From NCBI RefSeq assembly GCF_024298765.1, contig NZ_CP101220.1: a DNA stretch of 2,337 bases. One strand, 5' to 3'. Made by a program: the position numbers and the translations under genes. Position 1 is the stretch's first letter, and every line of letters starts with the position of its first letter. The DNA comes from Escherichia coli (GTDB lineage: Bacteria; Pseudomonadota; Gammaproteobacteria; Enterobacterales; Enterobacteriaceae). Below, in pieces: positions 1 through 2,337 of this stretch. The notes under the pieces were generated by a model. The model ran no database searches and was not told the DNA's origin. It saw only the letters and a list, made by a program, of their open reading frames with translations.

Positions 1-133
1 CGTCGAAAAGTTGCAGCGGAAAATGGGACAGGATGTGTATTCGTCATACCGCGAATACATTCGCTTGCATGAGAATACCTCCTGTCAGGGCAAGCCCCGA
101 CACCCCAAACGTGCAAAATGGAGAATCATTGCG

Positions 134-559
134 ATGACTAAAAATAAGCGTAGCGGTTCAGAAGTACGGCAGAGGACTAAGGTTATCACCCTTAGAGTAA
201 ATAACAGAATCGCAAACGAAATCAGACGGCGAGCGAAGAGCGAAGGGCTGACTATTTCAGAATATATAAGGACAACAAGCTTAAATAATGAAATAAAACA
301 GCGCGTTCCTTCCAGATATTTAGATGAATTAATCCAACTTGGTCGGATGCAGAAGAAATTATTTGATAAAGGGAAGAGACCGAAGGACAAAGAGTATCTG
401 GATGTGATGCATAAAATAATTTCACTTTGTGCTGAAATGAAAGAAGTAACACAGCGAATTTCTGATATATATAAAAAAATGGATTTAATAAAAGAAGAAA
501 TAAAAGCAATAAAAAAAATACATAAAAATAAATACCCAGGTTCCAACTTATTTAATTGA
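134..559 (+). CDS. mobC: MobC-family ribbon-helix-helix relaxosome accessory (plasmid mobilization) protein, 141 aa from ATG 134; same frame is open to window start (alternative starts TTG 11, ATG 23)
   Basis: ORF-track frame 11..559. GGAGA at 120-124 sits 9 nt before ATG 134. Translation contains RTKVITLRVNNRIANEIRRRAKSEGLTISEYIRTTSL, matching the MobC-type RHH pattern (basic N-terminus, beta-strand, then helices with a G-L-[ST]-x-S-E-Y-[IL]-R motif), followed by a Lys/Glu-rich probable coiled-coil tail. Family assignment is from motif recall, not a search. Confidence 0.55.
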   Translation: MTKNKRSGSEVRQRTKVITLRVNNRIANEIRRRAKSEGLTISEYIRTTSLNNEIKQRVPSRYLDELIQLGRMQKKLFDKGKRPKDKEYLDVMHKIISLCAEMKEVTQRISDIYKKMDLIKEEIKAIKKIHKNKYPGSNLFN

Positions 560-648: not shown

Positions 649-1068
649 TTAATCCGTTTTTTTCGGGGCTATCGTCACTGTTGAATCAATCCCTTCATTA
701 CTGTAAGTTGTTGTCCATACTATCTTTTGTACTTTCGCCCAATCAACTTTAACTGCGTATTTTTTATTAACCAAAAATTCATTTCTGGCTATTCTAGAAA
801 TTAAACATGACTCAATCAGTTGAGACACATTATTATTAAATGTTTGTGGTTTAATTGAATGTTCTGATAAAAACTTTTCTTTGGTTCTTGGTCCAAATGA
901 AACAACATTATCAGTATTCATATTAGCAAGCATGAACGTAAAAATTTTGTATTGCGTTGCTGATAGCCCTTTAACACGGCATAAATCACGGATATACAGC
1001 TTCACGAACTCCGGCTCTTCCAAAATTACGCCAGTTTTTTGATCTAAAAATTTCGCTCCCATTCTCAC
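649..1068 (-). CDS. Small winged-helix-like DNA-binding protein (139 aa); putative iteron-binding replication initiator or copy-control/origin-binding protein
   Basis: ORF-track ORF 649..1068 (-). SD-like GAGGTGAGA lies just upstream of the start on the minus strand; a second in-frame ATG at 1062 is a possible alternative start. Start codon is about 100 bp from the phased iteron array. Sequence pattern (LSATQYKIFTFMLANM ... FNNNVSQLIESCLISRIARNEF) resembles helix-turn-helix plus wing seen in Rep-initiator N-terminal domains. Function inferred from context; protein is short for a classical Rep. Confidence 0.5.
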   Translation of the reverse strand: MRMGAKFLDQKTGVILEEPEFVKLYIRDLCRVKGLSATQYKIFTFMLANMNTDNVVSFGPRTKEKFLSEHSIKPQTFNNNVSQLIESCLISRIARNEFLVNKKYAVKVDWAKVQKIVWTTTYSNEGIDSTVTIAPKKTD

Positions 1069-1091
1069 CTCGCAGGTAATTTAGTTACCGT

Positions 1092-1120
1092 TTTATCGGT
1101 ATCTTATGTATGTTCCACAA
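1092..1120 (-). promoter_or_regulatory. Candidate sigma70-type promoter for the rep-like gene (minus strand -35 TTGTGG at 1115-1120, 17-bp spacer, -10 GATAAA at 1092-1097)
   Basis: Hexamers read on the minus strand; both are imperfect. Location between the iterons/dyads and the start codon fits an autoregulated rep promoter. Weak. Confidence 0.2.
1111..1119 (+). promoter_or_regulatory. DnaA-box-like 9-mer TGTTCCACA (two mismatches to TTATCCACA)
   Basis: Sequence match only. Position next to iterons is typical for iteron-type origins. A degenerate 9-mer like this can occur by chance. Confidence 0.2.
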
Positions 1121-1163
1121 CCGAGTAAATACTTTTTTTCCGGTATTTGATTAGCAACAAAAA

Positions 1164-1267
1164 CAGTATTCCGGTATTTGAAATACCGCTGAGCGGTATT
1201 TCAACCTCCGCTCAGCGGTAAAAACTTTCCCGCTGAGCGGTATATCTATTCCCGCTGAGCGGTATTT
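1164..1267. repeat. Iteron array: five direct repeats in exact 22-bp phase; four full copies of CCGCTGAGCGGTAT(T/A) starting at 1186, 1208, 1230, 1252, plus a degenerate leading copy carrying CGGTATTT at 1172
   Basis: Direct reading: CCGCTGAGCGGTATTT 1186-1201; CCGCTCAGCGGTAA 1208-1221; CCGCTGAGCGGTATAT 1230-1245; CCGCTGAGCGGTATTT 1252-1267. Start-to-start spacing is exactly 22 bp three times. The CGGTAT core recurs at 1172, 1194, 1216, 1238, 1260. The left half CCGCT-N-AGCGG is itself a dyad. Confidence 0.75.
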
Positions 1268-1363
1268 AGTTTGCCTCTAGGCCTTGTCACACCTGATTTT
1301 CCTATCTGTCTGTGAATCTATCTTAGATCTCGTGCGTAAGTGCACTATGCCAATACTGGTTCC

Positions 1364-1430
1364 CTTCCGCTTCCTCGCCCACTCGCGAGCCTAGCGGCTC
1401 GGTCGCTGGGGCTGCGGCGAGCGGTGCCAC
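1364..1430 (+). other. ColE1/pMB1-type origin-flanking conserved segment, probably a PriA-dependent primosome assembly site (n'-pas / single-strand initiation signal)
   Basis: Window CTTCCGCTTCCTCGCCCACT...GCTCGGTCG...CTGCGGCGAGCGGT versus remembered pBR322/pUC CTTCCGCTTCCTCGCTCACTGACTCGCTGCGCTCGGTCGTTCGGCTGCGGCGAGCGGTATCAGC. Exact blocks of 15 nt (1364-1378) and 14 nt (1412-1425) are shared. Contains hairpin CGAGCC-tagc-GGCTCG (1386-1401). Assignment of this pBR322 region to the pas is from memory. Confidence 0.55.
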
Positions 1431-1905
1431 CTCTCGCATATCGTTGACGATCCCGATTTGATCTCAGGCGATCGAGTCGCTGGCCACCGGTTAAACGCGC
1501 TCAAAGCCTCCCAGACGCACAAAACGCGGGTTAAATGCCCGTCAGGGCATGGAAGGCGCGAAAAACGCTTACAGAGGTTTTCAGAAGGTTAGGCGCGCCG
1601 ATACCCCTAACCAGGGGCTTTCAGGTCGCTAGGAACCGCGCCAGCCCCCTGCAAGGCCCATTTGCACGGAACAGACAGCCACTCGGTTGGTAGGTGGTCG
1701 TAGACCGTCGGTGTTACAGCGATGGGGGTCTGGGGTTCTCCCCAGACGGTTTCCGGTTGCGCTCAAGGCGCTGCCGGAACCGTGGCGGCTTCGATGGTGA
1801 AGGGTGAGCGCGTTTCCAAGAGGTTTTCCAGGCAAGCTATGACTGAACTGAACAGATTGAACGAGGAGGAAACGCGCTCAGACGCTTTGTAGCGCGCTTT
1901 TCTGT
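1431..1905. other. GC-rich, ORF-free, hairpin-dense segment; candidate ColE1-like RNA-primed origin/regulatory RNA region (RNA II preprimer and antisense RNA I analog), or another structured noncoding RNA
   Basis: Sharp rise in GC relative to flanking AT-rich genes. Only ORF is a 68-aa minus-strand Arg/Pro/Gly-rich one typical of GC-rich noncoding DNA. Hairpins seen: ATGCCC-gtca-GGGCAT (1535-1550), CCCCT-aacc-AGGGG (1604-1617), 8-bp stem 1728-1735/1740-1747 with loop TTCT, CCGG..GCGC-tcaag-GCGC..CCGG (1753-1777). Order of motifs loosely parallels pUC ori (e.g. GATACC followed by a CCAGG/CCTGG-type hairpin). No clean RNA II-like promoter was found. Confidence 0.35.
1868..1902 (+). terminator. 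Intrinsic-terminator-like hairpin with T-rich tail (stem CGCGCT 1873-1878 / AGCGCG 1891-1896, 12-nt loop, then CTTTTCT)
   Basis: Seen directly on the + strand at the 3' edge of the GC-rich block. Could be the terminator of an RNA I-like antisense RNA or of another + strand transcript. Loop is fairly large and the U-tract is interrupted. Confidence 0.35.
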
Positions 1906-2337
1906 GTCAGGCAAGTTTGTTGTGTCTTTTGCCTTTCAGGTTGTTAGCAGCTGGCGGAGCACTGCACGGGGATTAATGCTCCCATTGCTAGGATGAAATA
2001 AAGATTAGGAGCGAAGTTAAGTTATATTTTTAATATATAAACGCGATATCAATAACTCACATAGTTATATTTTATGCATATGCTACCATCTTGCTCTTTT
2101 GCCTCCTGCTCTCTGGACGAATCCCGCATTACCAACAGGCAATGGATTATATAACCAAGAAGATCTAATCTTTATTCCTCTAATAATCCACAAACGACAG
2201 ACAACAAAGACATCAATTAATTCGGTGTTATTTATTAAATAACAAGCAATAATTTTTAAAATCTGTGTAAATAATATTGAATGAAGCATCATTTTTTTGT
2301 ATCAGAAATACCAGGTTACGACGCGGTATTTTATTTT

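Follow-up and report, generated by a model that had tools for sequence, protein, structure and literature searches.

Putative replication region of a small Escherichia coli plasmid, combining an exchangeable RepL-like rep-iteron cassette with a portable ssiA-like element and a conserved GC-rich block

In pMB1, the lagging-strand primosome assembly site ssiA (n'-pas) sits just downstream of the RNA/DNA switch (PMC3167613). Plasmids of the pIGWZ12 group are theta replicating and contain iterons and DnaA boxes upstream of rep, together with an A+T-rich region (PMC6856555), and the oriV of pKL1, with its Rep-binding sites, was reported to lie upstream of rep (PMC3832669). Here we analyzed a stretch of 2,337 bp (the window), which is a complete circular plasmid of Escherichia coli; as the window is the whole circle, its ends are arbitrary, and everything was read on the circle. 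A paper on small E. coli plasmid families did not cover the group to which this plasmid belongs. An initial annotation had proposed that the region from 1086 to 1960 might be a hybrid replicon, in which an iteron array with its Rep protein abuts a segment with the RNA-primed, antisense-controlled replication of ColE1. Our analysis indicates that the plasmid is probably a small iteron plasmid of the RepL family, composed of exchangeable modules, and that this region acts in cis in its replication. It is an ordinary modular small plasmid, and since there is no RNA I/RNA II system, two replication strategies are not fused in it.

The modules within 1086-1960 were delimited by aligning related plasmids, which are designated L002, L003, and so forth throughout. 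The features of the region and the adjacent rep gene are as follows.

649-1062, minus strand: rep, coding for a diverged, predicted RepL-family winged-helix protein of 137 amino acids, putative initiator and autorepressor (open reading frame [ORF] listing, RefSeq coding sequence)
1086-1101, no strand: palindrome TACCG-N6-CGGTA, located between the start of rep and the repeat array and regarded as a candidate operator over a weak rep promoter (sequence reading, CGGTAT enrichment)
1138-1273, no strand: iteron array, with CGGTAT half-sites at 1141 and 1172 and then four CCGCTSAGCGGTA units with a 22-bp period (repeat statistics)
1274-1331, no strand: spacer of 58 bp between the last iteron and module (a), not AT-rich, candidate melting/start region
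1332-1445, minus strand: module (a), ColE1 ssiA-like (n'-pas, PriA-type) predicted primosome assembly element with a conserved core at 1365-1425
1446-1504, no strand: variable linker between modules (a) and (b); L008 has a different, longer linker
1505-1795, no strand: module (b), 290-bp GC-rich cluster of invariant palindromes
1796-1960, plus strand: lineage-specific extension with a 13-bp perfect inverted repeat and a terminator-like hairpin, common to L003 only

The cassette composed of rep and the repeats (556-1331) has a counterpart in L005 (2,188 bp) only; other cassettes replace it in L002 (2,313 bp), L003 (2,630 bp), L008 (4,237 bp), and L037 (3,717 bp). The segment 1332-1795 (to ~1798) is retained in these four plasmids despite the exchange of rep and iterons. 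This segment is GC rich, as the initial annotation had stated, with 58 to 64% GC across 1332-1795 versus 34% outside 1086-1960 and a plasmid-wide mean of 0.42.

The repeats of the cassette are highly significant. The palindromic core CCGCTSAGCGGTA matched 7 times, counting both strands, versus 0.01 expected, and four direct copies at 1186, 1208, 1230, and 1252 are spaced by exactly 22 bp. The half-site CGGTAT occurs 9 times versus 0.77 expected, concentrated at 1097-1265. The window thus contains what defines iteron replicons in this respect, namely, helical-turn-periodic direct repeats adjoining rep (4 units 22 bp apart plus half-sites), and both the iteron array (1086-1273) and the divergent gene for a DNA-binding protein beside it, as described initially, were confirmed (rep, 649-1062, minus strand, winged helix, RepL-like). 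In L005, the protein annotated RepL is 98% identical to the window Rep, and the repeats are those of the window, in five copies. Plasmids L002, L003, L008, and L037 encode other Reps and have different repeats of their own, also with a 22-bp period, at the equivalent place between rep and module (a). The repeats therefore change when the Rep changes (window, L002, L003, L005, L008, and L037); a repeat set that differs with each Rep and is the same in L005 is what cognate initiator-iteron pairs predict.

A database search retrieved 42 homologues of the window Rep. Its lineage is strongly diverged, with 20 to 24% identity to other RepL lineages, including the RepL of the sister plasmid L002 (24% identity, E about 1e-10 in BLASTP). 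Pfam family RepL (PF05732) was matched at an E value of ≤1e-3 by 15 of 19 aligned clade members (54 to 98% identical), the window copy not being among them. The top fold matches of an AlphaFold model of the window Rep (pLDDT of 78) were all winged-helix regulators, with weak E values. Based on these sequence and model comparisons, the protein is probably a diverged winged-helix member of the RepL family, and its family and context make it a putative replication initiator.

In the mechanism that we propose, the RepL-like protein would bind its cognate 22-bp-period repeats (1138-1273) and open the adjacent DNA. The same binding would overlap the region of the rep promoter and probably autoregulate rep. 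A candidate promoter was seen by eye on the minus strand at ~1101-1129 (-10 TAAGAT, -35 TTTACT; under the threshold of the scan), and the repression of this promoter by Rep is suggested by the location of TACCG-N6-CGGTA (1086-1101) at the likely transcription start. The gap between the last iteron and module (a) measures 58 to 134 bp in six RepL plasmids, with a GC content of 0.39 to 0.47. In three RepL plasmids with different iterons, this interval contains TTCCCTTCTTAGTTCTTA (L003, ~1200-1230; L008, ~3120-3145; L037, ~155-180), to which the window sequence at 1300-1331, TCTTAGATCT, is related. The TTCCCTTCTTAGTTCTTA/TCTTAGATCT motif could be a common melting/start site of RepL-type origins. 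The DnaA-box-like sites of the window are at chance level (6 versus 5.6 expected, none of them perfect), and no IHF consensus was found in it, which is consistent with the need for an alternative helicase-loading route.

Module (a) may provide such a route. Its core (1365-1425) aligns in inverted orientation to ColE1 1364-1308 over 61 bp with 79% identity (E = 2e-6), and the similarity to module (a) in other plasmids extends to about 95 bp. The match to the ColE1 origin-flanking region noted initially is thus genuine, and it is confined to these short lengths. In the ColE1 record used, Rfam places RNAI at 645-749 on the minus strand; RNA II is thus transcribed rightward, and replication would start near 1,195 if the distance from the RNA II start to the origin is, as we assume, 555 nt. 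The ColE1 stretch that matches (a) is located about 110 to 170 nt downstream of this start, so that (a) corresponds by homology (1365-1425 to ColE1 1308-1364) to the ssiA that follows the origin in ColE1-type plasmids. The sequence GAAGCGG, which we take to be a motif shared by n' sites, occurs once, at 1367-1373 on the minus strand, and is not significant alone.

At least part of module (a) was found in 1,073 PLSDB records, 814 of which are mobilizable plasmids of 3 to 5 kb. Its neighbors are Rep_3, IncX4, IncB/I-type, pKL1-type, and true ColE1 origins, and it recurs beside at least five unrelated Rep-dependent origins. Among its carriers, L006 (4,074 bp) is of the pIGWZ12 Rep_3 type and encodes a MobQ relaxase; in IncX4, (a) and the first ~80 bp of (b) are located in the long noncoding region upstream of the initiator gene; L011 (24 kb, IncB/I-type repA, PK-repBA pseudoknot) has (a)+(b) on the downstream side of repA and, upstream of this gene, another copy of (a) in inverted orientation. 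L036 is a genuine ColE1-type plasmid (RNA I at 80.8 bits, Rop, 70% identity to ColE1 594-1367) with (a) directly beside its origin, and in the orientation of the window the fork arrives there from the right, the side of (b). By homology to ColE1 and from the orientation in L036, the lagging-strand template strand of (a) is the window minus strand. Module (a) is, by homology, a portable ssiA-like element and a predicted PriA-type primosome assembly site, at which initiation would be PriA dependent and orientation dependent. The initial annotation had offered as a fallback that an iteron replicon has captured a ColE1-type single-strand initiation site, and the data bear this out: an element of 61 to 95 bp is located at the ssiA position in ColE1 and L036 and beside at least five unrelated Rep-dependent origins. 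In the conjugative 24-kb plasmid L011, the two ssiA-like copies (3677-3734 and 5639-5697) are on opposite strands and flank repA, as would be expected if forks moving in one direction used one copy and those moving in the other direction used the other.

According to the proposed mechanism, the minus strand of (a), once single stranded, ~60 bp past the last repeat, would recruit PriA-PriB-DnaT-DnaC, leading to the loading of DnaB and primase. With DnaB on the minus strand, the replisome would move leftward through the repeats and rep, and its geometry with respect to (a) would be that of ColE1. Leftward appears to be the sole direction consistent with the orientation of (a) in ColE1, L036, and L011, with the L011 origins presumably lying where we place them.

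The same orientation can be read differently, in terms of asynchronous replication by a rolling-circle or strand displacement mode. Rep would then start the leading strand at or near the repeats, leftward, and (a)+(b) on the displaced minus strand would be a single-strand origin, serving also as the complementary-strand origin after conjugative transfer. A number of observations agree with this scheme. The strand of (a) that is active in ColE1 is the minus strand, which would be displaced by synthesis codirectional with rep and which would also be the strand transferred from the IncI-type origin of transfer (oriT) at 1-112. Modules (a)+(b) are immediately "upstream" of the Rep-binding repeats, resulting in the classical sso-dso-rep order, and are shuffled among unrelated Reps, like the single-strand origins of Gram-positive rolling-circle plasmids. 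In addition, the Pfam family RepL takes its name from the pSN2/pIM13 group, whose members have been counted among the rolling-circle plasmids. We nevertheless consider asynchronous replication unlikely. The 137-amino-acid Rep, whose model matches winged-helix proteins only, does not resemble the HUH/Tyr nuclease-type initiators of rolling-circle plasmids, since no histidine is conserved in its clade and there is hence no HUH motif; 22-bp iteron arrays are typical of theta replicons; and (a) is oriented identically relative to rep in 33-kb IncX4 plasmids and in theta plasmids of the Rep_3 type, for which there would be little benefit from a site that is encountered only once replication has gone all the way around.

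The ColE1-like logic that the initial annotation ascribed to the GC-rich block was not supported. No RNAI/RNAII-like match was obtained in the window at an E value of ≤1, and the search with the Rfam RNAI model (RF00106) was negative for the window at this cutoff as well as for the relatives L002, L004, L005, L008, L034, and L037, whereas the positive controls ColE1 and L036 scored 73.8 and 80.8 bits, respectively. Of all Rfam families, only a spurious microRNA match on the palindromic repeats was returned for the whole window at an E value of ≤1. A blastn search (word size of 7, E ≤ 10) for homology to the ColE1 RNA II/origin region of about 550 nt found only the 61-bp ssiA-like match; in contrast, L036 aligns to ColE1 over 594-1367. 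Both the antisense RNA I and the RNA II preprimer/origin homology of ColE1-type plasmids are thus absent from the window. A chimeric or undescribed replicon is also contradicted by public records, since the layout is standard in a populous group of small enterobacterial plasmids. The window is identical over its full length (100%) to three 2,337-bp E. coli plasmid records, from human stool, a rectal swab, and chicken, and 99.9% identical to a 2,347-bp plasmid record; replicon typing by PLSDB returns Col(MG828). The whole of 1086-1960 is accordingly standard in a known plasmid group, with identical plasmids deposited, the cassette present in L005, and 1332-1790 present in pMG828-1. The plasmid itself, the RepL annotation, and the typing label are already public, and the layout is common to many sister plasmids.

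Module (b) is the remaining part of the conserved segment. Its palindromes include ATGCCCGTCAGGGCAT, CCCCTAACCAGGGG, and TCTGGGGTTCTCCCCAGA, together with a 38-bp near-palindrome at 1746-1783. It was found in 766 PLSDB records, nearly full length in 573 of them, mostly with 90 to 95% identity. Carriers comprise pKL1-like 1.5-kb plasmids (with a helix-turn-helix RepA), several RepL types, 1,458- to 1,506-bp plasmids with a different winged-helix protein of 146 amino acids, L011 (IncB/I type), and L036 (ColE1 type). All carriers examined encode an initiator or contain another complete replicon, and the smallest ones, of 1,458 bp, still have an initiator-like gene. As (b) is about 900 bp distant from (a) in L036, the two modules are separable.

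The initial description of the block as free of ORFs was confirmed, as no conserved ORF was found in it. A 585-nt ORF covering (a)+(b) was considered as a coding sequence and rejected, since it is broken in every frame of the window and interrupted by TAG or TAA in several other copies. In the 1.55-kb plasmids L034 and L035 (1-585 in each), this ORF is annotated in RefSeq as "rep protein" or "hypothetical protein"; it is probably a spurious ORF of a GC-rich sequence.

The claim that the block is structured was confirmed in part: there is an invariant cluster of palindromes, and the fold z-scores are negative, but covariation was not seen. For the single sequence, the z-scores of the block are -3.4 and -2.5. 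In the consensus fold of a 25-sequence alignment of (b), the covariation term is -0.06 and most pairs are invariant; compared with column-shuffled controls, the alignment has the better fold on either strand (z = -4.4 and -6.4, DNA parameters). The latter is accounted for by at least five invariant GC-rich palindromes, and neither strand is clearly preferred. A structured RNA was therefore rejected, given that there is no covariation, that both strands fold about equally with DNA parameters, and that no promoter was found; as the sequences to the left and right of (b) vary from plasmid to plasmid, a promoter common to all of them cannot be what drives it. No Rfam family matched (b) in the window or in its relatives. 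Other candidates were rejected as well. (i) An Xer/cer multimer resolution site was discarded since the XerC-spacer-XerD core (cer/dif like) had no match with up to 3 mismatches, and XerD arm-like matches were at chance level and outside the block. (ii) For a G4-type priming signal, the resemblance of CTGCAAAGCC (CATGGA.GGCG) to the phage G4 origin was within chance; in local alignments to the G4 F/G intergenic region, 274/500 and 30/500 shuffles scored equal or higher. (iii) A lead to the IncF "G-site" was abandoned, as the IncF-conserved sequence downstream of oriR in L028 differs from (b). Module (b) behaves as a DNA-level, origin-proximal, Rep-independent module and is probably a DNA-level replication accessory or priming signal.

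As (b) is located at the position that the RNA II origin of ColE1 takes relative to ssiA, it may be a second host-dependent accessory strand initiation signal, for example, a site on the plus strand where the leftward-growing leading strand is primed. Of the steps proposed here, this one is the least secure, and the specific role of (b) in starting or priming that strand by means of host factors is tentative and less likely than not. In a broader version, (b) would be a previously uncharacterized, portable strand initiation element that depends on host factors; within a layout like the bom-ssiA-origin order of ColE1, it would stand in for the RNA II origin and cooperate with (a), the interchangeable Rep/iteron cassettes merely triggering and regulating initiation. 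This version is speculative and on balance doubtful.

The position of (b) also bears on a true dual or hybrid origin, in which (b) would be a Rep-independent, host-primed origin, ColE1-like without a recognizable RNA I, that sends replication leftward into (a), with Rep and the iterons only regulating or boosting it. The location of (b) relative to (a) is exactly that of the ColE1 origin relative to ssiA, the order bom-(a)-(b) of pKL1-type plasmids is collinear with bom-ssiA-ori of ColE1, (b) is retained across at least four types of exchanged Rep cassettes, and the typing scheme appears to use this block as a "Col" replicon marker. We consider such an origin very improbable, as neither an RNAI match nor similarity to ColE1 RNA II was found, no promoter was detected, and the unconserved flanks of (b) leave none that could be shared. 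Moreover, (b) is accompanied in all carriers examined, including those of 1,458 bp, by an initiator-like gene or other complete replicon; L036 contains an entire ColE1 replicon in addition to (b), which is about 900 bp from (a); and the oriV and Rep-binding sites of pKL1 were reported upstream of rep, outside this block (PMC3832669).

Alternatively, (b) might be unrelated to initiation and function in maintenance (multimer resolution, partition-like, or gyrase binding) or be a selfish, recently spread hitchhiker beside origins. The absence of covariation, with conservation at the level of the primary sequence, would fit this idea, as would the 92 to 94% identity across many plasmids, which could reflect recent spread, the separability of (a) and (b), and the AAACGCGCTCA repeats that bracket (b) in the window and L003 and suggest recombination scars. 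There is, however, no Xer core site, the palindromes are invariant in the midst of unalignable flanks, and in IncX4 and IncB/I-type replicons as well as in small plasmids (b) is consistently found near the origin and in one orientation to (a). A function outside initiation is accordingly given little weight.

Several observations weigh against an iteron RepL replicon with a PriA-type accessory site. (i) The window Rep itself has no Pfam, NCBIfam, or PHROG match and is under the threshold of Pfam RepL (PF05732). (ii) An AT-rich unwinding element was not seen between the iterons and (a), the spacer having a GC content of 0.43 compared with 0.42 for the plasmid; the window thus does not show the adjacent AT-rich element with DnaA/IHF sites of iteron replicons. 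(iii) The hairpin fold of (a) alone is not significant (minus strand, -24.8 kcal/mol, z = -1.1; plus strand, z = -0.6). (iv) For (b), the 25-sequence alignment revealed no covariation in the fold, a consensus scan detected no sigma-70-like promoter, and no similarity to G4-type or IncF priming signals was found; the role proposed for it is drawn from position and distribution. (v) A simple scheme in which Rep opens the iterons and the leading strand runs rightward into the pas does not fit a minus-strand (a), and the leftward fork has to be assumed because homology to ColE1 makes the minus strand of (a) the active one. (vi) Rep binding to the repeats and the PriA dependence of (a) in the window plasmid are inferred. 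Taking these points together with the cassette exchange and the absence of the ColE1 RNAs, we still regard the iteron RepL replicon with a PriA-type accessory site, rather than a hybrid, as the probable nature of this plasmid.

The extension at 1796-1960 differs from the modules in its distribution. The segment 1791-1937 is absent from L002, and pABU, L005, and L008 diverge from the window at about 1795. The extension contains the 13-bp perfect inverted repeat (1805-1817/1868-1880) and a hairpin at 1867-1903 (dG, -16.2) followed by UUUUCU. The GC-rich block had initially been thought to end in a terminator; none was called there by the consensus scan, and the hairpin segment is lineage specific, being present in one sister lineage only (L003) and missing from L002, L005, and pABU. 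The sequence AAACGCGCTCA brackets (b) in direct orientation at 1493 and 1870 and inverted at 1805 (spans 1493-1503, 1805-1815, and 1870-1885); the copy at 1870-1885 (AAACGCGCTCAGACGC) is identical to the left boundary of (b) as it is in L008. This bracketing was seen in the window/L003 lineage only, and the copies may be a recombination or duplication scar.

The remainder of the plasmid contains two features related to transfer.

1-112, minus strand: IncI/K-type oriT, with the nick region ...CACATCCTG/TCCC and the inverted repeat GGTGTCGGGGC..GCCCTGAC
134-559, plus strand: mobA, coding for a NikA-like ribbon-helix-helix relaxosome accessory protein (NCBIfam NF041264, RefSeq)

The window sequence at 20-106 is about 76% identical to the site just upstream of nikA(mobA) and the MOBP relaxase of an IncI-gamma/K1 plasmid, with conservation of the nick region GGGACAGGATGTG and of the repeat GGTCAGGGC..GCCCCGACACC; the nick position is presumably that of R64. 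The oriT is directly upstream of mobA, whose product scores 95.6 bits with the NCBIfam MobA model NF041264 (cutoff of 80). RefSeq lists 2 genes for the plasmid, mobA and a hypothetical protein, and there is no relaxase gene on it. Despite the PLSDB label "non-mobilizable," which accompanies the type Col(MG828), the plasmid is probably mobilizable in trans by IncI/K/B helpers. The mobA product extends ~40 residues past the 91-position NCBIfam MobA model (match to residues 12 to 98 of 141), and this tail (window 440-559) is rich in lysine and isoleucine and encoded by DNA with 21 to 25% GC. In pKL1-type 1.5-kb plasmids, two oriT-like sites are located side by side just left of (a) on opposite strands, namely, a ColE1/pBR322-type bom (GGGTGTCGGGGCGCAGCCATGACCC...CTGGCTTA) and an IncI-type oriT (L161, 1111-1458 and 1-110; also pABU L004, ~250-380).

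The typing label deserves separate consideration. The sequence that the namesake pMG828-1 has in common with the window is limited to 1332-1790 (84%) and a weak oriT-like stretch. The label Col(MG828) is attached to plasmids with unrelated initiators, comprising the pKL1-type RepA, two RepL lineages, and the 146-amino-acid winged-helix protein, and to a true ColE1-type plasmid (L036); L158 is also among the plasmids considered here. Since (a)+(b) is the sole sequence common to the labeled plasmids, the typing marker is likely to lie in it; L002, in which the block is split across the record start, is assigned no replicon type. Col(MG828), which is widely used in surveillance, would thus track the noncoding (a)+(b) and not the initiator. 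Because (a)+(b) accompanies no fewer than five unrelated initiator systems and also occurs with a true ColE1 replicon, little about the mechanism of replication or about incompatibility can be read from the label.

Copies of (a)+(b) were also found in unexpected records. Contigs of 0.4 to 2.3 kb with E. coli-type (a)+(b) at 87 to 94% identity (L012 to L020, L026, L027, L030, and L033) belong to assemblies labeled Streptomyces, Mycobacterium, Micromonospora, Rhizobium, Bradyrhizobium, Flagellimonas, Clostridium, and Acinetobacter; they are most simply explained by carryover of E. coli small plasmids into sequencing projects. A phage collection was rejected as a source of relatives, as it contained only misfiled small plasmids and vector-like fragments: the records H144 to H146 (1.4 to 1.9 kb, "Escherichia phage ...") are pKL1-like small plasmids with 85 to 86% identity over 1332-1790, and other "phage" records match only the pMB1 vector version of ssiA, which points to vector sequence. 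A scan of metagenomes with a degenerate motif was too loose and added little diversity (16/120 loci genuine). Metagenome contigs of 7 to 13 kb (L056, L063, L072, L080, and L118) have between two and seven copies of (a), (b), or both, in differing orientations, which suggests cointegrates or assembly chimeras of several small plasmids.

The main remaining interest of the region is (b), a strongly conserved, origin-proximal element of 290 bp that hundreds of plasmid sequences contain. In combination with (a), the portable ssiA-like element, it offers a tractable case for studying how tiny plasmids with minimal winged-helix initiators recruit host helicase and primase. If (b) were indeed a portable strand initiation element, the "Col(MG828) replicon" would be a noncoding initiation module common to unrelated initiators and would represent a new class of single-strand initiation signals.

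A comparison with known systems places the plasmid as follows. (i) With ColE1/pMB1 it shares the 61-bp homologue of the ssiA region at 79% identity; its (a) implies a fork geometry like that of ColE1, and the bom-ssiA neighborhood is collinear in its pKL1-type relatives. It differs in that it has no RNA I, RNA II similarity, or Rop, encodes an initiator with cognate iterons, and has the unrelated (b) in place of the RNA II origin. (ii) The pKL1/pMG828-1 group, E. coli cryptic plasmids of ~1.5 to 1.9 kb typed Col(MG828), has (a)+(b) at 84 to 88% identity in the same order and orientation, as well as an IncI-type oriT and the same label. Its initiator is a helix-turn-helix RepA of 159 amino acids, essential in pKL1, without BLASTP relation to the RepL-like protein of 137 amino acids; its own binding repeats differ, and the window plasmid additionally has the nikA-like mobA. 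(iii) The pIGWZ12 Rep_3 and IncX/R6K-type iteron theta plasmids have a rep gene, upstream iterons, and (a) in the same relative orientation, whereas their initiators are Rep_3 or Pir. In addition, DnaA boxes and an A+T-rich region were reported for pIGWZ12 (PMC6856555), in contrast to the chance-level DnaA boxes and the spacer of the window, which is not AT-rich. (iv) The architecture is the same in the RepL-family small enterobacterial plasmids of 2.2 to 4.2 kb (for example, L002, L003, L005, L008, and L037), with a minus-strand rep, iterons of 22-bp period, a spacer of 58 to 134 bp, (a), and (b). The window Rep is below the Pfam threshold and 20 to 24% identical to the other lineages; in L005, the Rep is 98% identical and the iterons are the same. 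In its functioning, the window plasmid would resemble an iteron plasmid equipped with a ColE1-type single-strand initiation site, and it stands outside the ColE1 replicon family.

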